Assembly: GCA_023411795.1 (NCBI GenBank)
Contig: JAEYOK010000027.1
Coordinates: 62,609 to 126,608, forward strand
Direction: 5' to 3'
Source of the DNA: Bacillota bacterium
GTDB lineage: Bacteria; Bacillota; Clostridia; DSM-8532
Length of the DNA: 64,000 nucleotides
The first letter of the stretch is position 1. Each line of letters begins with the position of its first letter. Of the stretch, positions 1 to 18,344 are shown one piece after another. Below the pieces are notes generated by a model, which saw only the letters and a list, made by a program, of their open reading frames with translations, was not told the DNA's origin and did no database searches. The translations under genes and the position numbers were made by a program.

Positions 1-1
1 A

Positions 2-286
2 TTGAAGGGAACAAACGGACAAGCCTATAACGTTGTCAATGAGGAATCGACTATGACAATATCACAAATGGCAGAGTTAGTCGCCACTAAAGTTGCAGAA
101 GGGGATATTTCGGTTAAGTATGAAGTGCCTGAAACCAACATCTATGGGTATGCCAGCCCTAGTAAAAATAGGCTTTCATCAGAGAAATTATGCTCACTTG
201 GCTGGAAGCCTATGTATGGCATGGAGGATATGTACCGAAGAATGATAGAGAGCATGAAAGCCCAGTCCTCTGATAGTAAAATATGA
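2..286 (+). CDS. C-terminal fragment of an NAD-dependent nucleotide-sugar epimerase/dehydratase family protein (5' end outside window)
   Basis: ORF is open to the window edge. The tail ...LGWKPMYGMEDMYRRMIES resembles the C-termini of SDR-type sugar epimerases/dehydratases, and it sits at the head of a glycan gene cluster. Confidence 0.45.
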   Translation: MKGTNGQAYNVVNEESTMTISQMAELVATKVAEGDISVKYEVPETNIYGYASPSKNRLSSEKLCSLGWKPMYGMEDMYRRMIESMKAQSSDSKI

Positions 287-304
287 AGTACATGGAGAGA
301 TTCA

Positions 305-1465
305 ATGGATTATATTGATGAAATAAAAAAAATTATAACCACACGACTGGGGAGCATCACGAAAAACAGAGAAGCTATACTAGATCATTTCAGGCAATTG
401 TCGACCTGCAAAGAAATATGCTTATTCGGGGCAGGTCAAGCGGGTAAATCGCTCTATTTTACTTTAAAAGAACAGAATATTAAAGTGGAATCGTTCTGCG
501 ACAATGACAGAAATAAGTGGGGAAAAATCGTTGTTGATTCTAAACCATGTATTTCATATAATGAGCTTTTAAAATACAAAGATAATGTAATTTGCGTTAT
601 TTCAACAGGACCCGGCTATGGCAGTGAAATATACAAGCAGTTATCAAAAAGCGGATTTAAAAATATATACGGAAGAGAGATATTTATTTCACAGACAGTT
701 CATCCTGACATTGTTCTTTATGATTCAGATGAAACATCTCAAAGGCTACTGCGAATAACACGTTTGCTCAATGATGAATACTCATTGAAAGTATTATTTT
801 ATAAGCTCAAATCTTTGACTGCCGAGTTGAACGAATGGATGAACTTCAGTTTTAATGATATCCTTGACAGGAACATCTATTTTATCGAGAATGGACGGTA
901 TCTGAAGGATAATTGTACAATAATCGATTGCGGTGCTTATAATGGAGATACTTTGTTGAATCTGATAGACACACTGAAATATGTGAACTTTCAGAATTAC
1001 ATTTGCTATGAGATGGATCCGGAGAATTTCGGACTGCTTCAGAATTTCATCGATAGACTACCTGACCCATTGCGGCAAAAAGTTACTGCATATAACCTAG
1101 GTATTGGTAAAAGCACAAGCAGTGTAAAGTATCGTGGTAATCTGCTCGATTGCTTCATTGATCCAAATGGGGAAAAAAATGCGGATGTCATTAAAATTGA
1201 TGATCATTTGAAAGGAATAGATGTCGATTTTATTAAAATGGATATTGAAGGCAGTGAGATGGATGCATTGATTGGAGCTGAGAAAACGCTGACAGAGTGC
1301 CGTCCTGTCTGCGCAATATCTATTTACCATAAGTTTGAAGATTTATGGGAAATCCCTTTATTTTTCGAAAAGGTTATTCCAGACTCCAGATTTATTCTTA
1401 GGCACCATAACAACTGCTATTATGATACGGTTTTTTATGCGATACCAGAAGAACGGATTTCGTAA
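305..1465 (+). CDS. FkbM-family SAM-dependent methyltransferase with N-terminal Rossmann-like (PglD_N/NeuD-like) module
   Basis: C-terminal half has IIDCGAYNGDT ... FIKMDIEGSEMDAL, typical of FkbM methyltransferases. N-terminus has CLFGAGQAGKSLY...FCDNDRNKWGK. RBS GGAGAG lies upstream. Confidence 0.8.
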   Translation: MDYIDEIKKIITTRLGSITKNREAILDHFRQLSTCKEICLFGAGQAGKSLYFTLKEQNIKVESFCDNDRNKWGKIVVDSKPCISYNELLKYKDNVICVISTGPGYGSEIYKQLSKSGFKNIYGREIFISQTVHPDIVLYDSDETSQRLLRITRLLNDEYSLKVLFYKLKSLTAELNEWMNFSFNDILDRNIYFIENGRYLKDNCTIIDCGAYNGDTLLNLIDTLKYVNFQNYICYEMDPENFGLLQNFIDRLPDPLRQKVTAYNLGIGKSTSSVKYRGNLLDCFIDPNGEKNADVIKIDDHLKGIDVDFIKMDIEGSEMDALIGAEKTLTECRPVCAISIYHKFEDLWEIPLFFEKVIPDSRFILRHHNNCYYDTVFYAIPEERIS

Positions 1466-1508
1466 AAGTCAAAATCTTTGTTTAATATTGTAAGGAACGG
1501 TAGCAGCA

Positions 1509-2333
1509 ATGGAAATTCCAAAGGCAGATTTCAGGAAAATTCAACTAATTATGTTGGAGATGCTGATTGAATTTGATCGGATATGCAATAAGAATAATAT
1601 TGTCTATTCTTTGGATGGTGGTACACTATTGGGAGCCATCCGCCATAAAGGCTTTATACCTTGGGATCCGGATATCGATGTCATCATGCATCGAAAGGAG
1701 TATGAAAAGTTCAGGGAAGCCTGTAAAGTTGATCTTGATACAAGGCGTTTCTTCCTACAGGACCACACTCTTGATCCCTATTACCGATGGGGTTATGCGC
1801 GCTTAAGGCGCAAAAGAACAGAATTTGTTCGAGCTGGACATGAACATATGAAATACAAAAGAGGAATTTTCATAGATATTATGCTTGTAGATAATGTGCC
1901 GGACAGCCGTTTTATGCGTCCTATACATAATTTTTTATGCTTCTGTATCAGAAAAATCCTATGGGCAGAAGCAGGTAAATTTTTGCATTCAAAATGGTAT
2001 GGTCGAATATGGTACCGGTTATTGTCACTGATACCTGCAGAATGGGTATTCAGTTTAAGAGATTGGATAGCAGGTATTAATAATGCCAGGAACACAGAAC
2101 TTATAAGGAGAATGACAGGCGAATACCCGAAAAGGTGCAAATACGGTACACCAAAATACTTTTATAATAATAGGGTTAAAGTTGAGTTTGAAGGACATAT
2201 GTTCTGGGCTTTTGAACAATATGATCAATATCTCAGGCTTGTTTACGGGGATTACATGCAATTACCGCCACCGGGAAAAAGGGTTCCTCATATTCCCTGT
2301 TCAAAATATAAGCTGATAGAGCCTGAATTATGA
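1509..2333 (+). CDS. licD: LicD-family phosphotransferase (phosphocholine/polyol-phosphate transferase family)
   Basis: Hallmark LDGGTLLGAIRHKGFIPWDPDIDV motif. Size of 274 aa is typical. Confidence 0.85.
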   Translation: MEIPKADFRKIQLIMLEMLIEFDRICNKNNIVYSLDGGTLLGAIRHKGFIPWDPDIDVIMHRKEYEKFREACKVDLDTRRFFLQDHTLDPYYRWGYARLRRKRTEFVRAGHEHMKYKRGIFIDIMLVDNVPDSRFMRPIHNFLCFCIRKILWAEAGKFLHSKWYGRIWYRLLSLIPAEWVFSLRDWIAGINNARNTELIRRMTGEYPKRCKYGTPKYFYNNRVKVEFEGHMFWAFEQYDQYLRLVYGDYMQLPPPGKRVPHIPCSKYKLIEPEL

Positions 2334-2436
2334 AATCACATATGTCATGCAGGACTTAGTGAGCAGAAAAACCGTAGCCAAAAATGAACCTATGCCCATC
2401 ATATAACGGTTAAGGATATGGAAGGAATAAACCTGT

Positions 2437-4008
2437 ATGGAGAAAGAAAGTCTTTATAATTTATTTGATAGTGGCTTTGCTCAGTATAAAGATATCCCTA
2501 TAGCTCTATATGGGTTGGGAATAAATACTAAATATCTTCTAGAGGAAGCAAAAACATATAATATTGTTGGAATTATTGCAAATGAAAGAATTGGCGAAAT
2601 TGTTTATGAAAAAGAAGTGATGGCAATCGAGTCAGTTCCGGGAAAAGTCAGAATAATTATTATTATTGCGCAGGCGAAATCAATCAAGACTATCTATGAA
2701 CGGATTAAGTACATTGAAGATACCGGGATTGATATTTATGACCTCTATGGGAAAAAACTGAAGGACTATTATGATGAAGAAACCCCAAATGCGGTAAAAC
2801 CTCTCACCTTTGAATCAGCCTCAGCGATGAGTTCTTATGACCGAATGCTATACTCTTCAGTGGCAAATGTAATTAAATATGCTGTAAATAAAAGTGATCA
2901 CAATGTTTTGTACCTATTTTCCCAGAAAGCCTTTCATGACCCCCTGTCATTTGTAAAAGCAAAAGGAAAATTAACAATAGATGATATGTACAAGCTGGGC
3001 TACTATTGCTTTGCACCCATAACCGCTAACTTTCTTGCATGGTTGGTTAAAGAGTTTGAGAATATCAATAAATCCATAATTCTTTTTTCATCAAGAGATG
3101 GATATTTACTATTCAAACTGTACAGGTACCTAACAATTATAAGGCCGGAGCTGGTGCTTCCGGAAGCAGAATATTTTTATATTTCAAGAAGAGCTGCAAC
3201 CGTTGCTTGCATTCGGAAAGAATCTGATATTGTTGATATTGTAGCTTCCGTTTTAAGGCTATCAATGGGAAACTTGCGGGAGACTTTGGAACAGCGTCTA
3301 GGAAAAGTATTTGATAAATGTGATCCCATCCTGAACCGTTCACTTACAGATGTTCTAGGAAATGATGAAATCGATAAGATCTCAGAGAGAGTTTTGAAAT
3401 ATAAAGCAGAAATACAGGAAAATGCGGCATTTGAACGAGAGAATTATTTTAAATATCTGAAAAAAATTAATCTTAGTTTATACAATAACATTTTTCTATT
3501 TGATTTATACTCAAGAGGAACAAATGTAACAAAGCTGGGTTCTCTGCTTGACAGAGAAGTGAAATTATTATGCTATGCCGTTAAGGATTATCCAAATGAA
3601 TATATCAACTCCGAAAATAAATTTAAAAGCATGTTTGATAGCTCCAAAATCATATCGGGAGAGTGGTTCAGAAGATGCTACCAGTTGTTTGAGATAGTAT
3701 ACGCATCATCTGAAGGACAACTTGAGTGTTTTAACAAGGATGGTCTCCCCCTATTCACTGAGAACAGTCAATATAACTATGGCTATATTCAGGAAGTGCA
3801 AAAAGGAATTACAGCTTTTATAAACGATTTGGACTCTTTTGACGATAATTGGTATAGGAACGAATTTAGCCTGGATATGGTGGATTTCATGTGCGGAATG
3901 CTGGCTCAAAGATATTCTGTTTTTTCCCCTGATATACGTAATGGTTTCTTATATCAGGACAGTTTCTCATCGGATGAAACTATAAATATTTGGGATAGTA
4001 TAATATGA
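2437..4008 (+). CDS. Uncharacterised two-module protein: N-terminal Rossmann-like module plus C-terminal 'RDG' module
   Basis: N-terminus IALYGLGINTKYLL...IIANERIG. The C-terminal ~370 aa are colinear with the C-terminal regions of the 7759..9921 and 11578..14796 products (ILFSSRDGYLLFKLY, FLFDLYSRGTN). Confidence 0.6.
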   Translation: MEKESLYNLFDSGFAQYKDIPIALYGLGINTKYLLEEAKTYNIVGIIANERIGEIVYEKEVMAIESVPGKVRIIIIIAQAKSIKTIYERIKYIEDTGIDIYDLYGKKLKDYYDEETPNAVKPLTFESASAMSSYDRMLYSSVANVIKYAVNKSDHNVLYLFSQKAFHDPLSFVKAKGKLTIDDMYKLGYYCFAPITANFLAWLVKEFENINKSIILFSSRDGYLLFKLYRYLTIIRPELVLPEAEYFYISRRAATVACIRKESDIVDIVASVLRLSMGNLRETLEQRLGKVFDKCDPILNRSLTDVLGNDEIDKISERVLKYKAEIQENAAFERENYFKYLKKINLSLYNNIFLFDLYSRGTNVTKLGSLLDREVKLLCYAVKDYPNEYINSENKFKSMFDSSKIISGEWFRRCYQLFEIVYASSEGQLECFNKDGLPLFTENSQYNYGYIQEVQKGITAFINDLDSFDDNWYRNEFSLDMVDFMCGMLAQRYSVFSPDIRNGFLYQDSFSSDETINIWDSII

Positions 4009-6533
4009 GGTTTAATATTATGAGGAAGTTTAAAAAGGATATTATTATAGACCTTACTAAGTCATTAAGAGAAGCATATGAAAAACTAATTCTACTAGTG
4101 GATGATGAAGATTATGAAGAGGTTTACAGTCTTTTGGAAATCTGCCAGCAGGGAGCTTTATCTATTGGCACATCTATTGAAGAGTCTGAAAGTAATTATG
4201 AAGAAATTATACCGGAGCTGGAGGCATACTGTGATGACCTTTATCTCATTGGCAATAAACTGGCAAATCATGATTATGATTTTGATTCAGTTTTTGCGTC
4301 CATAGACAGGCGGCTCATTTTAATTGATAACTTCATCATAAATAATGTAAGGGTTATATATGAAATTGCTTTTTTACCATACAACGCATCAATGTGGGAT
4401 TCAATGGAGAGTGTCTGGATGGCTGCTAATAAAGACTCAAGGTGCAACTGCTATGTAGTTCCCATACCCTATTACGAGATAACTGCAGATGGCTCGGTAA
4501 TGAAATATGAAGGTTCATCATTTCCAAAATATGTTCCGGTGGTTCATTATAACAGCTACAGTCTGCAAGACAGGAAACCTGATATTATATATATTCATAA
4601 TCCTTATGATCAGTATAACAGAGTAACCTCGGTTCATCCCTCCTTCTATTCTTCGGAATTGAAGAAGCATACAAATATGCTAGTATATATTCCATACTTT
4701 GTTACAGGAAGATTTGTACCTGAAACATTTTTAAGTCTTCCCTCCTATAATTATATTGATAAAATAGTGATACAATCTCATAATCAGCTCCGGTATTACA
4801 GGCAGCATATACCTGCTGGAAAGTTGATTGCCCTAGGTTCACCAAAAGTAGATAGGGTAATCTCTCTAAGCAAGCTACAGAAAAATTATCCTGAAGAATG
4901 GAAAAGCATAATTGGAAATAAAAAAGTTATTTTTTATAATACAAGCCTGTCGGGACTTCTTAAATACCGGGAAAAAGCCCTCGATAAAATGGAATACATA
5001 TTCTCAGTCTTTAGTAACAGGGATACGGAGGTCTTATTGTGGAGACCTCATCCTTTAAGCAAGGCCACCCTTCGTTCGATGGTACCTGAGCTGTATCAAA
5101 GATATTGCGAGCTAGAGCAGAAATTTATAAATGAAAATATTGGGATATATGACACCACCTCTGACGTTTCAAACTCAGTTGCACTATCAGATGCATATAT
5201 AGGAGAAGAAGGCTCATCTGTCGTCCACTTATTTGGGGTTACCGGTAAACCTATATTTTTGTTGGATATGGAGTTGCCGGAAGATATAATACATAAACAA
5301 GAAAATCTTGTGGGCTGCATGGATGCATATTTAGAAAATGATAATCTGTGGTTCATGCATTGCCACTATAATGCACTGTGCAAAATGGATATAAACACCG
5401 GAAAGGCAGAAATCGTAGATTTAGTTCCCTACGAACCTCTGAATAAGGACCGTTTGTTTTACGAAATAGTAAGAATAAATGAAAAACTGTATTTTGCTCC
5501 CCATAGGGCAAAAGAACTTGCTGTATATGATTTGTCAAAAAAACATTTTGTAGGGGTTGCCCATAAACGAGTTGTAAGAAATATAGCAACTCAGTTTTCA
5601 AGAATAGTCCATTATAAGGATTACCTGTTCATAATTCCCACCTATTACCCTGCACTGGTGAGATATGATATAAAAAATAATATATATAAATACTATCCCA
5701 ATTTTAATGATGCTCTGAAGATGGAAGGAAACAGAACTTATCAAAATGGTCCTCTATTTTTGAACGCAGTGTATGTTGAGGGAGATCTATTATTGGTTGC
5801 TTCAGCAATATCTAATACGGTCGTTGAGTTTAACATGGAAACTGAAAATATAAACATTCATAAAGTAGGAAGCGCTGGAAACAACTACTTTGGTATGGAA
5901 TACGATGGCAATGATTACTGGCTGATTCCCTACAAGAGCAAGGTAATCGTTAAGTGGAACAGAATAACGGGTCGGGCATTTGAGTATGCTCAATTCCCGG
6001 AGGGCTTTATTAGCGGAAACAATCCATTCTTTAGTATTATTAGTTGTAATGAATACATGCTGGCATTCCCTAAGCATGCAAATATGATAGTTAAAATAGA
6101 CAAGAATACAGGTCATATGAGTGAATATAAGCTACCCTTGCACTATAGAGAAGGTGACAGGAAGGAATCCTATTATAGTTGGGTCAACAACTACTATTTT
6201 GCTAAGAAATCCGATGATAGGCATGTACTGGCATTGACGGCTTACGATAGCAGTTTATTAATTATAGACGTCGAAGCCCAAACTTATGTCACTAAAAAAT
6301 GCATAATCGAGAAAAGAATCTTAGAGACTGAATTTGGACGCCTTGATGATAATTATCCATATGTACTTAAGGAGAGCTGTGACGTAAATCTGAAAGACTT
6401 TATTTATGAGCTGGAGGAAAAACGGGCTTTTGATCCTAATGTGCAATTAAAGGCATACTCATCAGTTTTTGATAATATGGATGGATCCTGCGGTGAAAAA
6501 ATACATAGCTTAATAATTAGTGATATCGTATAA
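4005..6533 (+). CDS. CDP-glycerol glycerophosphotransferase (TagB/TagF)-like protein with C-terminal six-fold repeat (beta-propeller-like) domain
   Basis: ATGA start/stop overlap with the upstream gene. Central region has FLPYNASMWDSMESVW...IYIHNPYDQYN...LVYIPYF...VLLWRPHP...SDAYIGEEGSS, the pattern of Glyphos_transf-type enzymes as I recall it. Aa ~440-765 contain six similar ~50-aa repeats. Confidence 0.6.
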   Translation: MRFNIMRKFKKDIIIDLTKSLREAYEKLILLVDDEDYEEVYSLLEICQQGALSIGTSIEESESNYEEIIPELEAYCDDLYLIGNKLANHDYDFDSVFASIDRRLILIDNFIINNVRVIYEIAFLPYNASMWDSMESVWMAANKDSRCNCYVVPIPYYEITADGSVMKYEGSSFPKYVPVVHYNSYSLQDRKPDIIYIHNPYDQYNRVTSVHPSFYSSELKKHTNMLVYIPYFVTGRFVPETFLSLPSYNYIDKIVIQSHNQLRYYRQHIPAGKLIALGSPKVDRVISLSKLQKNYPEEWKSIIGNKKVIFYNTSLSGLLKYREKALDKMEYIFSVFSNRDTEVLLWRPHPLSKATLRSMVPELYQRYCELEQKFINENIGIYDTTSDVSNSVALSDAYIGEEGSSVVHLFGVTGKPIFLLDMELPEDIIHKQENLVGCMDAYLENDNLWFMHCHYNALCKMDINTGKAEIVDLVPYEPLNKDRLFYEIVRINEKLYFAPHRAKELAVYDLSKKHFVGVAHKRVVRNIATQFSRIVHYKDYLFIIPTYYPALVRYDIKNNIYKYYPNFNDALKMEGNRTYQNGPLFLNAVYVEGDLLLVASAISNTVVEFNMETENINIHKVGSAGNNYFGMEYDGNDYWLIPYKSKVIVKWNRITGRAFEYAQFPEGFISGNNPFFSIISCNEYMLAFPKHANMIVKIDKNTGHMSEYKLPLHYREGDRKESYYSWVNNYYFAKKSDDRHVLALTAYDSSLLIIDVEAQTYVTKKCIIEKRILETEFGRLDDNYPYVLKESCDVNLKDFIYELEEKRAFDPNVQLKAYSSVFDNMDGSCGEKIHSLIISDIV

Positions 6534-6548
6534 GAGCAGGAGGAAATA

Positions 6549-7742
6549 ATGGATCAGAATTTTTTACAGGATGAAATGAGAAATGATTATAAGGTATTAA
6601 AAGAAATCAAGCAATTGTGGGCTGTTGAATTGGATCTGATTGAAATGCTTAAGGATGTGTGTGAGCGAAACCATTTAAAATATTTTATAGCCGGGGGAAC
6701 GCTTTTAGGTGCTGTCAGGCATAAAGGATTTATACCCTGGGACGATGATGTAGACTTTTTAATGCCAAGAGAGGATTTTGAAATACTAAAAAAAATTGCA
6801 CCTAGTGAATTTAAAGAACCATATTTCTTTCAAACCGAAGAAAGTGACCCTGATATTTTTCTGGGTGGTTATGCCAAGCTCCGAAATAGCAACACAACTA
6901 TGTTTGAAAATATACATTTTTATCATAATGCGAATTTTGGCATATGGATTGACATTTTTGTTCTCGATTACGTACATATGGATTTAAAAAAGAGAAAAAA
7001 GCAGATTAAGAGGATAAGAAATCTGCAAAAGCTGATCTATGCAATAAATTACAGAGAATATAAAAAGTTTCTGAAACTATCATGGATTTGTTGGACCATA
7101 TATAAAATAATAGCATTGTTCTGCAATAGAGCCCGGCTATGTAATCGGTTATTTAATGCCATGACATGCTGTAAAACATCAGACAGCCTTTCATGTTTAA
7201 ATTACAGCAGCAATAAATATTGGCCGATATGTTTCAATAAAGAGGATTTCAAAGGTTCAATAATGCTGGACTTTGAGCACTTGAAGTTGCCGGCTCCAAT
7301 TGGTTATGAAAATGTATTGAGATTGCTATATGGTAACGATTATATGGAATTTCCGCCTAAAGAACAACGAGAACCGCACCATAAAGTTATTCTTGAGCCG
7401 AGTATTTCATATAGAAGCTACCTCATAAAGTTTGAAAGAGTTTGTGAAGATTTTAAAGGAAAGACTATAGTCGTTTTTGGCGCGGGAAAGATGCTGGAGT
7501 ATTTTCTAGATCATGAAGGTAAAATTTATCCACCGGTATTTGTAGTCGATAATGACGGTAATAAATGGGGCACAAATGTGCATAACATACCCGTTAAACA
7601 GCCCCAATCAATCCTTATTATCCCAAATGAAAATTTGCGTCTTCTCATCTGCAGCATACATTATCGTGAAATTGCAAAACAACTCAGAGAAATGGGAATA
7701 GATAATTATTATATATACGTGCAGGAAAAAGACTGGCTTTAG
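6549..7742 (+). CDS. licD: LicD-family phosphotransferase with C-terminal Rossmann-like module
   Basis: FIAGGTLLGAVRHKGFIPWDDDVDF motif. C-terminus has TIVVFGAGKMLEYFL...VVDNDGNKWGT. Strong RBS AGGAGG. Confidence 0.85.
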   Translation: MDQNFLQDEMRNDYKVLKEIKQLWAVELDLIEMLKDVCERNHLKYFIAGGTLLGAVRHKGFIPWDDDVDFLMPREDFEILKKIAPSEFKEPYFFQTEESDPDIFLGGYAKLRNSNTTMFENIHFYHNANFGIWIDIFVLDYVHMDLKKRKKQIKRIRNLQKLIYAINYREYKKFLKLSWICWTIYKIIALFCNRARLCNRLFNAMTCCKTSDSLSCLNYSSNKYWPICFNKEDFKGSIMLDFEHLKLPAPIGYENVLRLLYGNDYMEFPPKEQREPHHKVILEPSISYRSYLIKFERVCEDFKGKTIVVFGAGKMLEYFLDHEGKIYPPVFVVDNDGNKWGTNVHNIPVKQPQSILIIPNENLRLLICSIHYREIAKQLREMGIDNYYIYVQEKDWL

Positions 7743-7758
7743 TAAATTGGAGGATATA

Positions 7759-9921: not shown

Positions 9922-11562
9922 ATGGCTATATTTAATTCTGAAAGAAATATCCATGAGGAAAACTTAAAAGAATTAACAGCAGTTGAAAAAGTCATATGTG
10001 ATTACATTGCTCAGAATGGCTCCGATAATTATGACACTTTGATTTCTGCAGATGATAGATGGAAAGTATTCTATCATTTATCGGGTATGAGAAAATCGCT
10101 GCTTAATTGGTATGAGTTTAAAAAAGATTCGTCATTGCTTGAGGTTGGCGGAAGTTTTGGCGCTCTGACAGGGCTATTCTGTGACAGATGCAGAGAAGTT
10201 ACATCTGTCGAACGCTTCCTGCACAAGGCTGAGCAGATATATGAACGGCACAAAAACAGAGATAACCTTACCGTATATGCTGGCAGGATTGAAGATGTTC
10301 AGTTCAAAGATAAGTTCGACTATATAACAGTTATAGGAACACTCGAATATATAGCTAAAGGAAAGCCTGACAGAAGCATATACTCTGATTATCTCAAGAA
10401 ACTTAAAGGATTGCTTAAGCCCGGAGGGAAAATTCTTCTCGCTGTTGAAAATAGATACGGATTAAGGTATTTTTGCGGCGCTCCCAATCCCCATACCGGA
10501 GTACCATTCTCGGGAATTAATGGATATCCCCACAGCAATGATGGATATTCATTCAGCAAAAAAGAAATAACCGATGTTATTGAAACCGCAGGTTTTAAGT
10601 ATATGAAATTTTACTATCCCCTGCCTGATTATAAGCTTCCCCAGTTAATATACTCACAGGATTATATACCTCAAGCTAGTATTCGGGAAAGAGTAATCCC
10701 TTATTATTTGAACCCCTCATCTTTATTGGCATATGAGAATGATTTATATGATGATGTCATTGAAAACAAGGTTTTGGACTTCTTTTCAAACTCGTTCTTA
10801 ATTGAATGCTCTGATTCTGAATATTTCTGTGATGTTGTTTATGCGGCACTTTCCACCGACAGAGGACGTGAAGATGGTTTTGCCACTACTATCCACAGTA
10901 CAGACATCGCAAAGAAAACGGCTCTTTACCCTGAGGGAATTAGACGGCTGGAAACTATTACAAGAAACCATAAAGAGCTTGAAGACCGGAACATAAAAGT
11001 TGTTGAATCTAAACTCTCTGATAACGCCCTCCTTATGCCGTATATTCATGATGATACTTTATCGGATTACTTGAAAAAAATTATTAAGGTGGATAAAGAT
11101 ACGTTTGTATACCTATTTGACAAGCTTTTTGAGTGTATCCTGAAATCGTCAGGACATGTTTCAAAAGAGCATATTAAACTAAATTGTAAAGATTATTCTA
11201 TAGATTTTGGCACTATATTGGAAAAAGCATACATTGATATGATTCCCATAAACTGCTTTTATCGCAAAGGAGATTTCATTTTCTTTGATCAGGAGTTCAC
11301 AAGAGAGTTTTATCCGGCAAAATATGTGCTTTTCAGAGCATTAAAATATACCTATCACTTTATAAAAGAGGCAGATAATTTAATCACGCTGGAGTCGATG
11401 AAAAATAGGTATGGACTGTCCGGTTTATGGGACCTATTTGAAGAAGAAGAATATAACTTTGTTTCACAGAACAGGAAGTATGATGTAAACAGAGGTTTTT
11501 TCTCCCGTGCATATGTAGACAAAGAAAAAATTTATAGAAATGCTTTGGATTTATTGAAGTAA
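9922..11562 (+). CDS. Class I SAM-dependent methyltransferase fused to a protein-kinase-like/aminoglycoside-phosphotransferase-like C-terminal domain
   Basis: Motif I LLEVGGSFGALTG and motif LLKPGGKILLAVEN. The C-terminal half has AYIDMIPINCFY and DFIFFDQEF, resembling APH/choline-kinase catalytic motifs. Confidence 0.7.
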   Translation: MAIFNSERNIHEENLKELTAVEKVICDYIAQNGSDNYDTLISADDRWKVFYHLSGMRKSLLNWYEFKKDSSLLEVGGSFGALTGLFCDRCREVTSVERFLHKAEQIYERHKNRDNLTVYAGRIEDVQFKDKFDYITVIGTLEYIAKGKPDRSIYSDYLKKLKGLLKPGGKILLAVENRYGLRYFCGAPNPHTGVPFSGINGYPHSNDGYSFSKKEITDVIETAGFKYMKFYYPLPDYKLPQLIYSQDYIPQASIRERVIPYYLNPSSLLAYENDLYDDVIENKVLDFFSNSFLIECSDSEYFCDVVYAALSTDRGREDGFATTIHSTDIAKKTALYPEGIRRLETITRNHKELEDRNIKVVESKLSDNALLMPYIHDDTLSDYLKKIIKVDKDTFVYLFDKLFECILKSSGHVSKEHIKLNCKDYSIDFGTILEKAYIDMIPINCFYRKGDFIFFDQEFTREFYPAKYVLFRALKYTYHFIKEADNLITLESMKNRYGLSGLWDLFEEEEYNFVSQNRKYDVNRGFFSRAYVDKEKIYRNALDLLK

Positions 11563-11577
11563 AAGAGGAGAAATGTC

Positions 11578-14500
11578 ATGAATACTAGCAAGCTCATATC
11601 AATTGTTATTCCTGTATATAATACTGAGATCTATCTGGAGAGGTGTTTGCAAAGTCTGATAAACCAGACTTACCGCAATCTCCAGATTATTGTAGTCAAT
11701 GATGCTTCACCGGGAAATGTTAATGAAATTATGGAGCATTATCAAACCATAGATAATCGTATCGTATATATAGAGCACAAAAAAAACATTGGAGTCTTTA
11801 AGGCCAGAATTTCGGGCTTGCAGGCGGCAAACGGAGAATATATCTCATTTGTCGACAGCGACGATTATATAGGAACTGATTATTACCGTTTATTAATTTC
11901 TGAAGCAGAAAAAAGTCAGGCTGACATGGTTTTTTCCAGAACCGTACTAGTAGGTCAGGAGAAAACCGTCTTTGGAATGCATGAAGTAGCATTCCCAAAT
12001 GAAATTATTGACGGTGAAAGTATCTTTTTAGATTTTTTTCTTGCTCAGGAAGGAAGATGCTACAATTGGCATACCTTATGGAACAAGCTATATAAAAAGA
12101 CCCTATGGGATAAATGCCTTATCTTTTTTGATCAATACAAAGAACATATTAATATGATGGAAGATATAGCCTGCTCCTTTCCCTTATTTTATTATGCCCG
12201 AAAAATAAGCAAGGTTGAAAATAGTGTTTATTATTATTGCCAGAATACCGGAAGTGCTACTGATGCTAAGACAGCATCATTTGAAAAGCTTAAGAAAAAT
12301 CTTGCTGACACATTCAGAATATTTGAAATAGTCGAAGAATTTTTAAAATCAATCAATGCTTCTGATAAGGTATTCAGCAAATATTATGATTTCAGGAACT
12401 ACTATATAAGAGATTGGAAGAATGGTATAGAGTTTTTCAACGACTCCGAAGAAAGAAAGGTACTTACCGGTATGATTACATCCACATATGGTGAAATAGG
12501 TAATTATATATTGGATGACAGGTTCTTCAGATCAGTGCGAACAATCTGGAATGATGATATAGAAGAGATAAAGAAGAAAATCTGTAATCCTGAATATGAA
12601 TATATAAGCTTTGATATTTTTGATACTTTAGTCACAAGACCATTTTACAGACCTAGTGACTTATTCCATCTACTAGACAAACTTTTCGAGAAGATTTACA
12701 AAGCAAAATTAAGTTTCCACCAAATCAGAATAGATGGAGAGATAAGTGCAAGAGTAAATCTGCAAAAAAGCAGCTTAGGTTTCCAAGATATTACTATAGA
12801 TGAGATATATGATAGTATCAGTGAAATATACGGAATACCAGCAAACATTTGTTCAGCTTTGAGAGAAGAAGAGAAAAGACTTGAAATCTTCTTTTGCACC
12901 ATCAGGAAAACTACAAAAGAGCTGTTTGACCTTGCTAAATATTCAGGTAAAAAAATAATTCTTGTATCGGATATGTACCTCGACAAGAGTACTATTGAAA
13001 GCATTCTTCATAAAAATGGGTATACAGGTTACGAACGAATATTCCTTTCATCAGAAGAGCGGCTTCTTAAGCATACGGGAGACCTTTTCAAAAAAGTTCT
13101 TGGCGTTCTGAAGGTTGATGGAAGCAAAATCCTCCATATAGGTGATAACCATTACTGCGATGTGACCAAAGCGAATGAAGCCGGCTTACACACAGTATAT
13201 CTACCACGGACGATCAACGTTTTTGAAAACAAAGTAAAAGAGCTTGATACCAGAGAATGCAGTACTCTTGCACAAAATGTCAGCGGTGTAATACTTGATG
13301 GAAGCAGGTTTCTTGAGTCAGTTGGGTACGGCTCAATGATAGCAATTGTAGCAAACCATTACTTCGATAATCCGTTCCGTCCTTTTAACAGTGAGAGCGA
13401 TTATAATGCTGATCCATACTTTATAGGGTATTATGCTTTGGGGATGCATTTGGCGGGTTTAATAAACTGGATATTACAGCAATCTTACGTTTATAAAAGA
13501 ATCCTGTTTATGGCGCGTGATGGTTTTCTTGTAAAGCAGGCATATGATATATGGACTGCGTCTATGGACAATACCCCTGTATCGGATTATGTCTATGCTT
13601 CGCGGAAAATGCTTCTCCCAGCATCTATTGAAAATACTGCTGATTTTTTTAATCTGCCTATTGTATATAGCAGTTACAATGCCATATCAATTCTTGAGTT
13701 ATTGGACTTCTGCACAAATGATACGTCTGAAGAAATACGCAGTGCTATTTTTGAAGAAAACAAGATTCAGGAAAACCTAAATTTCAAGACGAAGAATGAA
13801 TATTTTGAATTTATGAAATTCTATTTAAAATATTTCTATAATGAGGAAAAGCATAATGACTCAAAACAGTTATTAAAAGAATACTATGACGGGATCAGTA
13901 ACGCAGACATTATATTTGATATAGGCTACACAGGCAGTGTACCGTATGCATTTAAGCAGATTTCAGGTAAATCTATTGACGCTTTATTTGTATATAGCAG
14001 TATTGCGAAGACTTCACAAATGAGTCGCAAGGGCAATTTCAAAATCAAAACTTTCTATGATTTTACTCCTGAGGTCCCAATGTTGTTGAGAGAGCATGTC
14101 TTATCCGCTCCTCACCCTTCATGTATAGGATTAAATCAAAAAAGTGATAAGATTATACCCATCTTCGAGGATACAGAAAAATCCTATACCGATACTTTCG
14201 TCATAAACAGGCTACATGAGGGGGCATTACAGTTTATTAAGGATTTCTCAGGGTATTTCAGGGATTATCTTGATTATACCATGTTTAAAAGCTATGAGGT
14301 TTCCATGCCATTTGAAGCTTTCCTCAGAATTCCTACAGGCAAGGACTTACAAATATTTGAAAGCTCCTATTTTGAGGATAAGGTTTATGGACGGCAAAAT
14401 GCTATTAATATTGCAAGATATATAGAAAACTATTACAAGTCATTGCCTCAGTATACCAGTAATAATATGGTAGAATCCCTAAGAGATTCTTTGATTGATA

Positions 14501-14796
14501 ACATAAAATATAACCGCAAGCTAGTTTGCTTTGGTACAGGGAAAAAATGTAGAGAATTTTTATCCGAATATCCCGATATCCCTGTGAGCTTTTTCTTGGA
14601 TAATGATAGAAAATTAGCCGGTACTTATTTGAATAATAAAGAGATACGGCATCCTGAGCAAGTTGATAACTGGAACAGCATTTATATAATAATTACTACG
14701 TATTATAGTTCCGAGATTGAAAAGCAGCTAAGAAACCTTGGTCTGGAAAAATACAAAAACTTTATTAGTTTTCAGGAGTTATTTGGCATTGCATAA
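11578..14796 (+). CDS. Multidomain GT2 glycosyltransferase - HAD-like hydrolase/phosphatase - 'RDG' module - Rossmann-like module fusion (1072 aa)
   Basis: N-terminus ISIVIPVYNTEIYLERCLQSLINQTYRNLQIIVVNDAS and FVDSDD are GT2 (GT-A) motifs. ISFDIFDTLVTRP, ILVSDMY and IGDNHYCD are HAD motifs I, II and IV. ILFMARDGFLVKQAY follows, and the C-terminus has KLVCFGTGKK...LDNDRKLAG. RBS GAGGAG. Confidence 0.8.
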   Translation: MNTSKLISIVIPVYNTEIYLERCLQSLINQTYRNLQIIVVNDASPGNVNEIMEHYQTIDNRIVYIEHKKNIGVFKARISGLQAANGEYISFVDSDDYIGTDYYRLLISEAEKSQADMVFSRTVLVGQEKTVFGMHEVAFPNEIIDGESIFLDFFLAQEGRCYNWHTLWNKLYKKTLWDKCLIFFDQYKEHINMMEDIACSFPLFYYARKISKVENSVYYYCQNTGSATDAKTASFEKLKKNLADTFRIFEIVEEFLKSINASDKVFSKYYDFRNYYIRDWKNGIEFFNDSEERKVLTGMITSTYGEIGNYILDDRFFRSVRTIWNDDIEEIKKKICNPEYEYISFDIFDTLVTRPFYRPSDLFHLLDKLFEKIYKAKLSFHQIRIDGEISARVNLQKSSLGFQDITIDEIYDSISEIYGIPANICSALREEEKRLEIFFCTIRKTTKELFDLAKYSGKKIILVSDMYLDKSTIESILHKNGYTGYERIFLSSEERLLKHTGDLFKKVLGVLKVDGSKILHIGDNHYCDVTKANEAGLHTVYLPRTINVFENKVKELDTRECSTLAQNVSGVILDGSRFLESVGYGSMIAIVANHYFDNPFRPFNSESDYNADPYFIGYYALGMHLAGLINWILQQSYVYKRILFMARDGFLVKQAYDIWTASMDNTPVSDYVYASRKMLLPASIENTADFFNLPIVYSSYNAISILELLDFCTNDTSEEIRSAIFEENKIQENLNFKTKNEYFEFMKFYLKYFYNEEKHNDSKQLLKEYYDGISNADIIFDIGYTGSVPYAFKQISGKSIDALFVYSSIAKTSQMSRKGNFKIKTFYDFTPEVPMLLREHVLSAPHPSCIGLNQKSDKIIPIFEDTEKSYTDTFVINRLHEGALQFIKDFSGYFRDYLDYTMFKSYEVSMPFEAFLRIPTGKDLQIFESSYFEDKVYGRQNAINIARYIENYYKSLPQYTSNNMVESLRDSLIDNIKYNRKLVCFGTGKKCREFLSEYPDIPVSFFLDNDRKLAGTYLNNKEIRHPEQVDNWNSIYIIITTYYSSEIEKQLRNLGLEKYKNFISFQELFGIA

Positions 14797-14825
14797 ATGA
14801 AAACATTAAAAAAGGAGAAATAATT

Positions 14826-15257
14826 ATGAAACCTTATAAAACTGGTTATATTGCGGGTGTTTTTGATTTATTTCACATAGGACACCTGAACCTTCTCCGA
14901 AAGGCAAAGGATAAATGTGAATACTTAATAGTGGGCATATTAACAGATGAACTGGTTCATCATTTTAAGAACAAGCTGCCTTTTATTAACCAGGATGACC
15001 GAAAAGAGATTGTACAGGCTATTAAATATGTTGATCAGACAGTTTTGGTTTCTTTTGATAATATCGATAAAATGAAAGCATGGGAATTATATCATTTTGA
15101 CTGCTTATTTTCCGGTGATGACTGGAGGAACGAGCCAAGCTGGGCTGCGGACAAAAAGAGACTGAATGAGGTTGGCTCAAACATCGAATTTTTCACATAT
15201 ACTCAAGGTATCAGCTCCACGCAAATTAGGAGCCAGATTCAAAATGAAAACAAATAG
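14826..15257 (+). CDS. tagD: Glycerol-3-phosphate cytidylyltransferase (TagD/TarD family)
   Basis: GVFDLFHIGHLNLLRKAK (HxGH motif) and YTQGISSTQIR match the TagD family, and the 143-aa size fits. RBS AGGAGA. Confidence 0.85.
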   Translation: MKPYKTGYIAGVFDLFHIGHLNLLRKAKDKCEYLIVGILTDELVHHFKNKLPFINQDDRKEIVQAIKYVDQTVLVSFDNIDKMKAWELYHFDCLFSGDDWRNEPSWAADKKRLNEVGSNIEFFTYTQGISSTQIRSQIQNENK

Positions 15258-15282
15258 AAAGATATGAATATTTTCTTCACTC

Positions 15283-16014
15283 TTATCCAAAGATCTGAGA
15301 GGTTTCTCTGGCATCAAGCATTGCCTTGAACATATAAAAATCTATCGCGGTCGTTACCTTTAGATTATCAGCAGAGCCTAATACCTGACGAAGTTTATGA
15401 CCGTAATAACTCATAAGTGACGCTGTATCAATAAAGTTCATTTTATTTTCTGAATTTGCTTTTTTATGAACGGCTAATACATCCTTAATATAAAAGCTCT
15501 GGGGTGCCTTTGCTACTCTTGCAGTATTACGATCAATAACCTGATCTATAAAACCTTCACTATTAACAGTGACAACCGTTTCATACTGATATGCGACAGT
15601 AACTCCGCTGCCATATTTTTTGACTGACTCGATATTTTGGGAAATCAGCTGTTGGTTTATCAAAGGCCTGACACCATCATGAAGCAGAACAATATCATCA
15701 TCCGAAAGGTCTACATTCTCTTCTATTTTTTTTAGTGCATTATAAATTGAACTCTGTACTGTTTCTCCGCCTTTAACAATCCACCTTACCTTTTTTATTC
15801 CAAAACGACATAATTCATTTTTAAGTGTTTCAATCCAGCTTTCAAGACATGCGACAACAATGAAATCAATATCTGGATGAAACTCAAAATGCTCTATCGT
15901 GTGTAATAAAATCGATTTGCCATGTAGCTCCAAAAATTGCTTCGGTTTGGTTTGACTATTCATGCGTACTCCGGTACCGCCTGCAAAAATAACTGCTATA
16001 TTCAATAGTGACAC
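15283..16014 (-). CDS. IspD/TarI-family cytidylyltransferase (CDP-ribitol / CDP-polyol synthase-like)
   Basis: N-terminal AVIFAGGTGVRM...KPKQFLELHGKSIL is typical of the IspD/TarI nucleotidyltransferase fold. GTG start. Convergent with tagD. Confidence 0.75.
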   Translation of the reverse strand: MSLLNIAVIFAGGTGVRMNSQTKPKQFLELHGKSILLHTIEHFEFHPDIDFIVVACLESWIETLKNELCRFGIKKVRWIVKGGETVQSSIYNALKKIEENVDLSDDDIVLLHDGVRPLINQQLISQNIESVKKYGSGVTVAYQYETVVTVNSEGFIDQVIDRNTARVAKAPQSFYIKDVLAVHKKANSENKMNFIDTASLMSYYGHKLRQVLGSADNLKVTTAIDFYMFKAMLDARETSQIFG

Positions 16015-18307: not shown

Positions 18308-18344
18308 TGTATCACTCCTCAGAAGCCCGTCAGAGCTTCAATTT

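Follow-up and report, generated by a model that had tools for sequence, protein, structure and literature searches.

Gene content of the island

In C. difficile, GlcNAc-FliC is the substrate of the FtaABCD pathway, in which the donor is CDP-activated and a methyltransferase and TagF-like transferase take part. The locus described here occupies positions 1–16,014 of the window (the whole 64,000-nucleotide stretch of DNA that was analysed), which comes from an uncultured, Acetivibrionales-like MAG. Given the genes present, their domain homologies, the conserved catalytic motifs, the adjacency to fliC and the recurrence beside flagellin genes, the locus is probably a flagellin O-glycosylation island, in which a ribosyl/alditol-phosphate glycan is built on flagellin. 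The ORF list comprises ten plus-strand genes and one convergent minus-strand gene, in agreement with the initial annotation, which had also placed csrA-fliW-flgL-flgK near the island end:

2..286, +: SDR, extended, 3′ end (94 aa of 349), identical to contig L001 8671–9720 and cut by the window start
305..1465, +: o2, small Rossmann-like R domain and FkbM-family SAM methyltransferase (PF05050, E = 3e-13; TIGR01444)
1509..2333, +: o3, stand-alone LicD-family phosphotransferase (PF04991, E = 2e-37; full-length profile)
2437..4008, +: o4, R domain and CriT-like glycan phosphoribosyltransferase (gPRT), without phosphatase domain (BLASTP, motifs)
4005..6533, +: o5, helical bundle (1–114), divergent TagB/TagF-like GT-B (~117–430) and beta-propeller (~440–790) (AF2, Foldseek)
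6549..7742, +: o6, LicD phosphotransferase and C-terminal R domain (PF04991, E = 1e-43)
7747..9921, +: o7, R domain, degenerate HAD (pseudo-phosphatase) and CriT-like gPRT (AF2, Foldseek, profile)
9922..11562, +: o8, class I SAM methyltransferase (~residues 55–230; Methyltransf_11/23/12/25 and NodS matches) and conserved ~310 aa C-terminal domain
11578..14796, +: o9, GT2, intact HAD phosphatase (CrpP-like), CriT-like gPRT and R domain (profiles, motifs)
14826..15257, +: o10, small cytidylyltransferase of the TagD/ECT/CCT family (PF01467, E = 3e-19)
15283..16014, −: o11, IspD/TarI-type cytidylyltransferase (PF01128, E = 3e-40)
16176..17903, −: MCP between island and csrA (context; MCPsignal and HAMP, strong TM segments)
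18053..24176, −: late flagellar operon (context; Pfam matches), transcribed from flgN to csrA
18053–18307, −: csrA (Pfam)
18345–18776, −: fliW (Pfam)
18801–19763, −: flgL (Pfam)
19723–21387, −: flgK (Pfam)
21417–23489, −: second flgK, with VWA insert (Pfam)
23505–24176, −: flgN (Pfam)

Domain profile matches agreed with the two LicD proteins, the FkbM and class I methyltransferases, the GT2 fusion and the IspD-like protein proposed from inspection of the sequence. The genes are tightly packed, as had been noted (intergenic spacing in gene order: 18, 43, 103, −4, 15, 4, 0, 15, 29 and 25 nt), and direct reading showed the TAA stop of o7 and the ATG start of o8 abutting at 9919–9924 (9921/9922). 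The reported ATGA overlap at 4005–4008 can also be read in the sequence, but it hinges on the chosen start; database gene calls start o5 five codons later (837 aa) and o7 four codons later (720 aa).

The island begins beside the flagellin gene

Contig L001, which matches window positions 1–2634 with zero mismatches, contains flgN-fliS-fliD-flaG on the minus strand, followed by fliC (274 aa), a GT2-TPR gene (417 aa), the SDR gene (349 aa), o2 and o3. The flagellin gene, whose location the initial annotation had asked for, is thus found 2.2 kb before window position 1, in the same orientation as the island. Behind it come the GT2-TPR gene, for a protein glycosyltransferase that best matches the SunS family of peptide glycosyltransferases (E = 7e-33), and then the SDR gene, whose 3′ end is at window positions 2–286. 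Most likely, the full unit consists of fliC, GT2-TPR, SDR and the genes of window positions 305–16,014, the present block being its larger part, and it is flanked by the flaG-fliD-fliS and csrA-fliW-flgL-flgK operons. The fliC gene has a SigD-type −10 box (GCCGATAT) and is followed by a strong terminator; this terminator and the convergent o11 count against the flagellin reading with respect to co-regulation with fliC.

Three proteins resemble Bcs3-type ribofuranosyltransferases

By sequence and model comparison, o4, o7 and o9 are predicted to be ribofuranosyltransferases that depend on PRPP, of the CriT/CrpP type represented by H. influenzae b Bcs3. The AF2 model of o7 (pLDDT 88) matched Bcs3 (8A0M, E = 2.6e-19) and the T. 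composti ribofuranosyltransferase (7SHG, E = 2.8e-16) in Foldseek searches, the o7 family profile matched Bcs3 with E = 1.4e-31, and residues R430-D431, S459-R460 and D553 are conserved. Both other proteins matched o7 by BLASTP (o4 versus o7 residues 344–665, E = 2e-25; o9 versus o7 residues 150–539, E = 2e-20). The o4 motifs SRDG, ISRR and FDLYSRGT are counterparts of the Bcs3 CriT catalytic residues. The o9 translation contains FDIFDTL, HIGDN..D, ARDG, ASRK and FDIGYTGS, along with a PF00535 match (E = 8e-32) and HAD matches at residues 406–546, and its P. typhae orthologue (1070 aa) is 60% identical. All three proteins retain the gPRT catalytic motifs, and among them only o9 has an intact phosphatase; the o7 HAD domain has E157 in place of the nucleophile Asp, and NIIAT as motif IV versus HIGDN. 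The HAD-like modules of the initial annotation are the phosphatase halves of ribofuranosyltransferases, as indicated by the o7 Foldseek and profile matches to Bcs3, and they do not resemble FtaA.

Predicted supply, transfer and methylation of phospho-alcohols

LicD-family phosphotransferases use CDP-alcohols as donors of the phospho-alcohol that they transfer. The acidic motif DPDID occurs in o3, and the R domain of o6 matches that of o2, for which PF22674 (C2185-like_N) is on record in the identical protein; o2 homologues are present in Paraclostridium flagellar islands. The genes of o8, o6 and o10 form a conserved triad, adjacent to each other in loci L085, L089, L090 and L019/L021, and the LicD, methyltransferase and o10-type cytidylyltransferase are sometimes fused (among o8 relatives, to a CTP_transf_like domain in 3/18 and to LicD in 1/18). 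The nearest solved relatives of o8 are N-methyltransferases; its C-terminal domain had no Pfam or PDB match, a point that we count against the explanation. The earlier assignment of o10 as TagD, a glycerol-3-phosphate enzyme, is probably incorrect: o10 scored 79 bits against the TagD equivalog TIGR01518, below the cut-off of 165, and its best PDB match was human ethanolamine-phosphate cytidylyltransferase (3ELB, E = 7e-26), compared to E = 6e-15 for TagD. From these comparisons, a phospho-amino-alcohol is the more likely substrate, rather than glycerol-3-phosphate.

A different CDP-alcohol may be supplied by o11 and the SDR. The best solved relative of the SDR is the C. jejuni HS:5 CDP-6-D-glucitol synthase (8V4G, E = 1.6e-45), and the SDR gene adjoins an IspD gene in loci L003, L085 and L089; it is a predicted CDP-ketose reductase (CDP-alditol synthase) and partner of o11. 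The latter passes the cut-off of NCBIfam NF001183 (ribitol-5-phosphate cytidylyltransferase; 185.9 bits, cut-off 166), and a CDP-pentitol or CDP-hexitol precursor is its predicted product.

For o5, the AF2 model (pLDDT 89.9) retrieved propellers and the GT-B enzyme UDP-GlcNAc 2-epimerase in Foldseek. The proposed TagB/F likeness held for 10 of 30 o5 relatives, which match PF04464 (best E = 2.2e-9), but o5 itself had no Pfam match; hhalign aligned the SPKxD, YNTS, RPHP and SDAYIGE motifs with a probability of only 22%. The TagF assignment of o5 has a transitive and motif-level basis only, and we count this against the explanation. Full-length o5 homologues were enriched at flagellar loci (8/12 versus 3/67, p = 2.7e-6); the family is large and includes flagellar-locus examples beyond the 8/12. 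We predict that o5 is a CDP-alcohol:flagellin-glycan phosphotransferase.

Recurrence beside flagellin genes

As the initial annotation had suggested checking, co-occurrence with flagellar loci was found in several Bacillota genera. In P. bifermentans (L090) the order is fliC, GT2/TPR, IspD, RHX, o5, FkbM, RHX, MT, LicD/R, cytidylyltransferase, SDR, flgB, and in B. centrosporus (L085) the gene set lies between hag and flaG. It also stands beside flagellin in Paenibacillus, Cohnella, Sporomusaceae, Sporomusa and Clostridium sp. BL-8; with Paraclostridium and Brevibacillus included, the fliC-flaG or fliC-flgB gap is occupied in at least six genera. Late flagellar genes were within 10 kb in 11 of 79 o7-relative loci, versus ~1% expected. 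The remaining ~68 of 79, without a flagellar neighbour, count against the flagellin reading, as do the o6-o7-o8-o9-o10 blocks of P. typhae and P. arenosi, which have no flagellar gene within 10 kb, and an o7 relative in Clostridium sp. chh4-2 whose neighbours are a Wzt-type ABC transporter and numerous GTs.

Alternative explanations

The block might instead make a cell-wall glycopolymer (wall teichoic acid or secondary polysaccharide of ribosyl-alditol-phosphate type), with primer and ABC exporter encoded elsewhere and the flagellar adjacency incidental. The orphan cassettes in the two Paenibacillus species, syntenic with the island, and the relatives at the ABC-transporter locus of chh4-2, where o7, o8 and LicD relatives accompany an ABC_tran/Wzt_C gene and multiple GTs, leave room for such a role. 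Bcs3, the Klebsiella O4/O7 ribofuranosyltransferases, TagF and bacterial LicD all build polysaccharides or teichoic acids; to our knowledge, all characterised gPRT, Bcs3, TagF and bacterial LicD enzymes have polysaccharide or lipid-linked acceptors, none of them protein-linked glycans, which also counts against the flagellin reading. As first noted, the island proteins lack obvious TM helices: no 19-residue hydrophobic stretch was found in any of them, while the positive controls, the MCP and an ABC permease, both scored strongly. This is not decisive, since polymerases of the Bcs3 type are soluble or peripheral too. Nevertheless, we regard a cell-wall product as unlikely. The first island gene, right after fliC, encodes a protein-type GT2-TPR, and a late flagellar operon flanks the island on either side; the same set fills the fliC-flaG or fliC-flgB gap elsewhere, and o5 homologues are strongly enriched at flagellar loci. 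Annotation of 58 kb (window 1–48.7 kb and 9.4 kb upstream) revealed no Wzx, Wzy, TagGH, other exporter, priming GT or ligase; the window ORFs beyond this range, at 48.9–64 kb, include two 590-aa proteins resembling ABC exporters, which counts against the flagellin reading. The absence of exporter and priming transferase initially reported agrees with this for 1–48.7 kb, and none lies directly upstream.

Another surface or secreted protein (S-layer, pilin, or a hook-associated protein such as the VWA-containing FlgK paralogue) is a very improbable target. The enzymes are cytoplasmic with no lipid carrier involved, a second FlgK, unusual in having a VWA domain, is encoded nearby, and the orphan Paenibacillus cassettes indicate that the toolkit does not require an adjacent flagellin gene; however, the gene directly before GT2-TPR is a filament flagellin in every flagellar locus examined, and no S-layer or pilin gene was found in the window (1–48.7 kb annotated). 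We give equally little credence to a decaying or mosaic cluster with several inactive enzymes making only a simple glycan. Such decay might be read from the altered nucleophile position and motif IV of the o7 HAD, and from the loss in o4 of the HAD domain still present in the P. typhae orthologue (726 aa). Every ORF is intact, though, packing is tight and the gPRT motifs are conserved in three copies; the degenerate o7 HAD is conserved even in orthologues only 47% identical, as would be expected of a non-catalytic role under maintenance and not of recent decay.

Proposed pathway and comparison with known systems

The cytoplasmic flagellin-glycan island originally envisaged, adding phosphodiester/polyol-phosphate and methyl groups, has strong support from its context (the upstream fliC and GT2-TPR, recurrence beside flagellin and lack of an exporter or priming transferase immediately upstream); flagellin as acceptor, all substrates and the order of steps are as we infer them. 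All enzymes would be soluble and would act on flagellin in the cytoplasm before flagellar type III export. The SunS-like GT2-TPR, just outside the window, would place the first sugar onto flagellin Ser/Thr, and o11 and the SDR would make a CDP-alditol (e.g. ribitol, arabinitol or glucitol), from which o5, possibly also the LicD protein o3, could transfer alditol-phosphate onto the glycan. The CriT-like domains of o4, o7 and o9 would transfer ribofuranose-5-phosphate from PRPP; since an intact phosphatase is found only in o9, some ribose may retain its 5-phosphate if o9 does not act in trans. A further sugar could be added by the o9 GT2 domain, the o8, o10 and o6 triad could make and transfer a methylated phospho-alcohol (e.g. 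phospho-(N-methyl)ethanolamine or phosphocholine), and the FkbM protein o2 could add methyl groups. The product would be either one unit or a short ribosyl-alditol-phosphate chain resembling that of Hib. If this is true, flagellin would carry an unusual, phosphate-rich glycan of ribose, sugar-alcohol phosphate and methyl groups, a chemistry so far described for capsules and teichoic acids but not for flagella.

The IspD-type o11 and the SDR resemble the C. jejuni CDP-glucitol synthase pair, and the role proposed for o5, and possibly o3, matches that of C. difficile FtaD. The P. bifermentans island sits where C. difficile has its F2 locus, and the island described here is analogous to C. difficile CD0240-0244, but larger.

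A flagellin gene and a predicted initiating glycosyltransferase lie directly upstream of the island

Exact-protein look-up of o2, the first complete island protein, retrieved L001, a 12-kb metagenome contig that overlaps window 1-2634 with zero mismatches and whose position 9435 corresponds to window position 1. The genes of this contig and of the island are listed below.

Genes of contig L001 and of the island (window coordinates unless L001 is stated)
L001, - strand: flgN-fliS-fliD-flaG, on the 5' side of the flagellin gene
L001, + strand: flagellin (fliC), 274 aa, NCBIfam 'flagellin Hag' 367 bits against a cut-off of 352
L001, + strand: GT2-TPR protein, 417 aa, directly after fliC
L001, + strand: extended SDR, 349 aa, last 94 residues at window 2-286, followed by o2 and o3
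305-1465, + strand: o2, FkbM
1509-2333, + strand: o3, LicD
2437-4008, + strand: o4
4005-6533, + strand: o5
6549-7742, + strand: o6, LicD with a C-terminal R domain
7747-9921, + strand: o7
9922-11562, + strand: o8, methyltransferase
11578-14796, + strand: o9, GT2-HAD fusion
14826-15257, + strand: o10, cytidylyltransferase
15283-16014, - strand: o11, IspD-type cytidylyltransferase

The initial annotation had proposed a flagellin-glycan island, for which the location of the flagellin gene relative to the window mattered. The 3' end of fliC lies 2.2 kb upstream of window position 1 and the gene is co-directional with the island; the unit from fliC to o11 is flanked by flaG-fliD-fliS and by csrA-fliW-flgL-flgK. 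The GT2-TPR protein matched best the SunS peptide glycosyltransferase family (E = 7e-33, below the equivalog cut-off), and on this similarity is predicted to be a protein-directed, not a lipid-directed, GT2. The fliC leader (L001 6236-6405) contains a perfect SigD-type -10 element, GCCGATAT, at 6263-6270, and fliC has a strong intrinsic terminator, a hairpin with an 11-bp stem (L001 7264-7289), ~48 nt before the GT2-TPR start. The leader also has GGA-containing stretches in the Shine-Dalgarno region, which could be CsrA sites.

No Wzx/Wzy-, TagGH- or Wzm-Wzt-type exporter, flippase or TagO/WecA-type priming transferase was found in window 1-48.7 kb and the 9.4 kb upstream. The sequence immediately upstream had been the place where such genes might have spoken against flagellin; L001 carries fliC, GT2-TPR and the SDR there, and therefore neither an exporter nor a priming transferase. 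A hydropathy scan detected no membrane-helix-like segment in any island protein, as first reported for the large ones, with the neighbouring methyl-accepting chemotaxis protein (MCP) and an ABC permease scoring strongly in the same scan.

Layout and surroundings of the island

The island at 1-16014 was confirmed: on the + strand nine genes are complete and one lacks its 5' end, and a single convergent gene lies at 15283-16014. Gaps along the + strand genes are 18, 43, 103, -4, 15, 4, 0, 15 and 29 nt. The sequence shows the ATGA overlap at 4005-4008 and, at 9919-9924, the abutting TAA|ATG; database gene calls place the starts of o5 and o7 five and four codons further in, respectively. Promoter and terminator scans inside the island stayed at chance level, so the operon structure was deduced from gene spacing only. 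Pfam and NCBIfam agreed with the FkbM (o2), LicD (o3, o6), class I methyltransferase (o8) and GT2-HAD fusion (o9) assignments, and identified o10 as a PF01467 cytidylyltransferase and o11 as an IspD-type cytidylyltransferase. o4 (523 aa), o5 (842 aa) and o7 (724 aa) had zero family matches in these scans.

On the 3' side of the island follow genes for an MCP, csrA, fliW, flgL, two flgK paralogues and flgN. The MCP gene (16176-17903) sits between csrA and the island, at the position where Bacillus has hag, and a terminator-like hairpin lies 3' of csrA at 18015-18002. The tandem paralogues of FlgK, hook-associated protein 1, are encoded at 19723-21387 and 21417-23489, the second (690 aa) with a von Willebrand factor A domain inserted at residues 304-441. 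Window 24-48.7 kb is occupied by housekeeping genes (ComFC-like, RecD2, MetK, RadA, CysS, ArgS, Ddl and others). Among them, 24 kb from the island, is an ABC exporter pair at 40087-42365 (PF16962 'putative ABC exporter' permease plus ABC ATPase), which is not of the TagGH/Wzm-Wzt type and was judged unrelated to the island; two proteins of ~590 aa encoded at 48934-52474 resemble a heterodimeric ABC exporter. The organism is uncultured and related to Acetivibrionales/Ruminiclostridium MAGs, the nearest named of which have an ArgRS 80-82% identical to its own.

Three island proteins are predicted PRPP-dependent ribofuranosyltransferases

All-against-all BLASTP of the island proteins revealed a modular design of shared domains: a HAD domain (H) common to o7 and o9, a domain without assignment at this stage (X) common to o4, o7 and o9, and a small Rossmann-like domain of ~90 aa (R) found in five proteins, N-terminal in o2, o4 and o7 and C-terminal in o6 and o9. 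The R domain has weak similarity to PF22674 C2185-like_N and PglD_N, and may serve these proteins as a common module for nucleotide binding or docking. Related flagellar islands (L085, from Brevibacillus centrosporus, and L086) also have it on glycosyltransferases, methyltransferases, radical-SAM and acetyltransferase proteins.

Single-sequence searches of o5, o7 and o8 against the PDB returned nothing useful, and only a family profile and an AF2 model revealed the relation of o7 to Bcs3. The AlphaFold model (pLDDT 88, built on 27 homologues) matched in Foldseek the Haemophilus influenzae type b (Hib) capsule polymerase Bcs3 (8A0M, E = 2.6e-19; 8A0M/8A0C together, E of about 1e-19) and the polysaccharide ribofuranosyltransferase of Thermobacillus composti (7SHG, E = 2.8e-16). 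By hmmsearch the o7 family profile matched Bcs3 with E = 1.4e-31 over residues 370-838, spanning the CrpP phosphatase and the CriT ribofuranosyltransferase. The PRPP-site residues of Bcs3 are S678/R679/D680, S707/R708 and E818 (PMC10299916). They align to (A/S)-R-D-G, S-R and D553 of the o7 family, in which R430, D431, S459 and R460 are invariant and D553 near-invariant among 27 sequences. The CriT active-site residues are all present in o4, o7 and o9, which on these sequence matches are predicted PRPP-dependent ribofuranosyltransferases of the CriT/gPRT type.

The accompanying phosphatase domains differ. The motifs of o9 are intact (FDIFDTL, HIGDN..D). The HAD domain of o7 (residues 150-340) is degenerate: the nucleophile Asp (D386 of Bcs3) is replaced by E157, the motif I Thr by Val, and HIGDN of motif IV by NIIAT. 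Motif IV is lost in o7 and in its orthologues with identities as low as 47%, and the nucleophile is Glu in o7 and four orthologues (P0002-P0004, P0012); conservation of the degeneracy over this range suggests a maintained pseudo-phosphatase. o4 has no phosphatase domain, and its Paenibacillus typhae orthologue keeps one. The degenerate domain of o7 together with the HAD-less o4 predicts that ribose-5-phosphate is retained.

Donor enzymes point to a CDP-alditol and a methylated phospho-alcohol

Among solved structures, the SDR is closest to the Campylobacter jejuni HS:5 CDP-6-D-glucitol synthase (8V4G, E = 1.6e-45), an enzyme that together with an IspD-family cytidylyltransferase converts a ketose phosphate to a CDP-alditol (PMC10918830). 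o11 scored above the curated cut-off of the TarI-type ribitol-5-phosphate cytidylyltransferase model NF001183 (185.9 versus 166 bits), a subfamily model for which a passing score does not prove substrate specificity, and related loci have the IspD gene next to the SDR gene. The polyol-phosphate idea of the initial annotation is therefore supported, and from the ribitol-5-phosphate-type score of o11 the alditol could be a pentitol. The assignment of o10 as TagD did not hold: it reached 79.2 bits with TIGR01518 against an equivalog cut-off of 165.4, and its nearest solved relative is human ethanolamine-phosphate cytidylyltransferase (E = 7e-26, compared with 6e-15 for TagD).

Both LicD proteins matched the full-length PF04991 profile above the gathering cut-off of 22.6 (o3, 129.9 bits; o6, 150.4 bits). 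For the methyltransferase domain of o8 the closest relatives are N-methyltransferases, and the matches include phosphoethanolamine N-methyltransferases. Relatives of o8 are fused to a cytidylyltransferase (3/18) or to LicD (1/18), and in several loci the o8, o6 and o10 genes are neighbours. Adjacency and fusions link the three enzymes into one sub-pathway, which probably delivers a methylated phospho-alcohol.

o8 ends in a conserved domain of ~310 aa (window 10624-11559), which had no match in Pfam scans of 18 relatives or in a search of the PDB with a C-terminal profile. D439-x4-N444 is invariant, followed by a nearly invariant D456 and invariant Q457 and E458. Because this D-x4-N ... D-Q-E spacing resembles kinase catalytic and Mg loops, a kinase could be guessed at the level of the motif; identification as a WbdD, choline-kinase or APH-like kinase received no support from Pfam (18 relatives) or the PDB profile search.

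A second recurring donor module was observed beside o5 or LicD genes at L086 8630-15838, L087 12549-16930, L088 12538-14596 and L004 4656-9600. In it, a fusion of a cytidylyltransferase with a GFO_IDH_MocA oxidoreductase is accompanied by a GDPD glycerophosphodiesterase, a Metallophos phosphoesterase and LicD; the module appears to be an alternative phospho-alcohol pathway of flagellar islands and one cell-wall locus.

o5 represents a large, possibly TagF-like family

In the model of o5 (pLDDT 89.9), a helical bundle is followed by a GT-B-like domain and a beta-propeller. The model has alternating beta/alpha segments at residues 117-430 and matched the GT-B enzyme UDP-GlcNAc 2-epimerase (E = 1e-9); the top Foldseek matches were propellers, and TagF structures were absent among the 50 matches listed. 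o5 itself did not match PF04464 even at E = 10, and 10 of 30 relatives did (best E = 2.2e-9). hhalign against a bona fide PF04464 Glyphos_transf protein aligned the SPKxD, YNTS, RPHP and SDAYIGE motifs at a low probability (22%, E = 9e-4). Searched against the PDB, the full profile found only designed helical bundles, via the N-terminal bundle, and a profile of the GT-B region alone found no sequence. The name 'TagF-like' for o5 is reasonable but not proven. The family is uniform in length (~830-870 aa) and almost wholly without annotation. Among the candidates scored, 3,730 database clusters matched it at E ≤ 0.001; the DUF6923 propeller repeat was matched by 12 of 30 sampled members. A P. 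typhae protein (L003 6560-8740) suspected to be an o5 orthologue was rejected: it is an R-HAD-gPRT protein orthologous to o4.

Related islands recur at flagellar loci, and their modules also occur elsewhere

Among 79 loci collected by an o7-family genome scan, late flagellar genes were present within 10 kb in 11, against ~1% expected by chance, and nine of these 11 fall among the 20 closest relatives. Of 12 loci with full-length o5 homologues eight were flagellar, compared with 3/67 of the remaining loci (Fisher p = 2.7e-6).

Gene content of related flagellar loci, from independent look-ups of o5 relatives (RHX, R-HAD-gPRT protein; MT, methyltransferase; LicD/R, LicD with R domain)
Brevibacillus centrosporus: csrA, flagellin, GT2/TPR, o5, IspD, SDR, RHX, MT, LicD/R, cytidylyltransferase ... 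flaG
Paraclostridium bifermentans: fliC, GT2/TPR, IspD, RHX, o5, FkbM, RHX, MT, LicD/R, cytidylyltransferase, SDR ... flgB
Clostridium sp. BL-8: o5 relative downstream of flagellin, in an island also with Maf, NeuB and GT2-TPR genes
Sporomusa sp. GT1: flagellin, GT2, o5
Mouse-gut MAG: o5 relative among chemotaxis and flagellar export genes

In P. bifermentans the island is found at the site that the F2 modification locus has in the C. difficile chromosome. GT2-TPR, o5, IspD, SDR and RHX form the recurrent core, which in enzyme terms equals Bcs1 plus Bcs3 plus a protein glycosyltransferase.

The same enzymes might instead serve a cell-wall polymer. Cassettes syntenic with that of the island (IspD, SDR, TagF or o5, RHX, LicD/R, RHX, MT, GT2-H-X-R, cytidylyltransferase) occur as orphans in P. 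typhae (L003 3418-17561) and P. arenosi (L089 8930-20153), with no flagellar gene, GT2-TPR or exporter within 10 kb. In Clostridium sp. chh4-2, relatives of o7, o8 and LicD adjoin a Wzt-type ABC transporter and many glycosyltransferases, and flagellar neighbours are lacking for most of the distant relatives of o7. The gPRT, LicD and MT modules are therefore portable and used for cell-wall polymers as well. We assign the present island to flagellin because of its position, the initiating glycosyltransferase and the o5 association, not because of the enzyme families themselves. The earlier reading as a flagellin-glycan island is supported, with corrections, and we consider it likely.

Proposed pathway and its significance

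We propose a cytoplasmic flagellin O-glycosylation pathway in which an initiating sugar would be placed on flagellin and then extended. Alditol-phosphate from a CDP-alditol would be added via o5 and/or o3, ribofuranose or ribose-5-phosphate from PRPP by o4, o7 and o9, and a further sugar by the GT2 domain of o9; o8, o10 and o6 would add a methylated phospho-alcohol and o2 methyl groups. For this specific chemistry we would put the chances at even, at best. A broader generalization is tentative and, in our estimate, rather improbable: that flagellin here and in the many Bacillota with the GT2-TPR, o5, IspD/SDR and gPRT core might carry a short ribofuranose/alditol-phosphate chain, like those of teichoic acids or the Hib capsule, capped with methylated phospho-alcohols, built on the protein by soluble cytoplasmic enzymes and leaving via the flagellar type III channel. 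If this short-chain reading were true, PRPP-dependent glycosylation and the o5 TagF-like/beta-propeller family would be dedicated protein-glycan tools.

Flagellin glycans influence motility, filament assembly, aggregation and immune recognition. To our knowledge, the C. difficile type A and P. aeruginosa b-type flagellins are the only ones whose phosphodiester-linked 'post-glycosylation modifications' are understood in detail, and PRPP-dependent ribofuranosylation, CDP-alditol transfer and LicD-type phospho-alcohol transfer have so far been known from capsules, O-antigens and teichoic acids; the island would bring all three into protein glycosylation. In the open-access literature no paper was found that ties LicD, ribitol or ribofuranose to flagellin; searches that also covered glycerophosphotransferase led only to the C. 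difficile work. A 2026 preprint states that some species have larger fta-like clusters, with nothing further on them. The analysis provides a functional lead for the ~840-aa unannotated o5-type proteins (>3,700 database clusters), and makes many 'hypothetical' proteins of 500-1,100 aa in Bacillota flagellar loci recognisable as predicted glycan phosphoribosyltransferases. Culturable organisms with an orthologous island are P. bifermentans and B. centrosporus.

Comparison with known systems

The island shares with the Lic (LicA kinase, LicC cytidylyltransferase, LicD transferase; phosphocholine decoration) and Kennedy pathways the pairing of LicD with a small cytidylyltransferase, and o10 and o8 recall them through their ethanolamine-phosphate cytidylyltransferase and phosphoethanolamine N-methyltransferase relatives. 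However, it contains no recognisable LicA or LicB, its cytidylyltransferase is of the TagD/ECT family rather than LicC, and the o8 methyltransferase bears the extra C-terminal domain without family match. The CDP-6-D-glucitol pathway of C. jejuni HS:5 (cytidylyltransferase HS5.18, reductase HS5.17) likewise combines a PF01128 cytidylyltransferase with a PF01370 SDR; here the pair is split between opposite island ends and strands, and the predicted destination is a flagellin glycan rather than a capsule.

Dual-domain enzymes (gPRT + PRP) of Klebsiella O4/O7 and T. composti (7SHG) have the same HAD phosphatase plus gPRT architecture. These enzymes are described as transferring Ribf-5-P from PRPP and then dephosphorylating it, and serve undecaprenol-linked O-antigens exported by ABC transporters, whereas the context here is flagellar and there are extra R domains, a fused GT2 and a degenerate or missing phosphatase. 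By analogy, the predicted chemistry of the island resembles the Hib capsule machinery, Bcs3 (CroT-CrpP-CriT) and the CDP-ribitol synthase Bcs1, with which it shares the logic of a TagF-like alditol-phosphate transferase, a HAD phosphatase, a PRPP-dependent ribofuranosyltransferase and CDP-alditol synthesis. In contrast to Bcs3, these functions reside on separate proteins or in reordered fusions (R-X, R-H*-X with a degenerate HAD, GT2-H-X-R), there is no SH3b domain, and two of the three gPRT domains have no working phosphatase; CDP-alditol synthesis would fall to the IspD and extended-SDR pair instead of Bcs1, and the genes stand in a flagellar, not a capsular, context, with no group 2 capsule export machinery.

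The C. difficile type A locus (CD0240 and ftaABCD/CD0241-0244) likewise follows fliC immediately, with late flagellar genes on one side and early ones on the other, and has an initiating glycosyltransferase acting on flagellin (predicted in the present case) and soluble enzymes throughout. The logic of FtaABCD is also shared: a CDP-activated donor, SAM-dependent methylation of the donor and TagF-like transfer of a phosphodiester-linked group onto GlcNAc-FliC. FtaA and FtaB of C. difficile make CDP-threonine. The island has no FtaA-type phosphoserine-phosphatase/ThrH-like HAD and no FtaB-type NTP-transferase; its HAD domains are of the CrpP type, align to CrpP of Bcs3 and are fused to gPRT domains, and its cytidylyltransferases belong to PF01467 and PF01128. 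Because the FtaA and FtaB types are absent, the island is not a member of the FtaABCD pathway, though it would work alike. Its transferases include two LicD proteins and a TagF-like enzyme fused to a beta-propeller, and with ~13 genes, compared with five in C. difficile, it has both a CDP-alditol pathway and three predicted PRPP-dependent gPRT domains, neither of which is found in the C. difficile locus.
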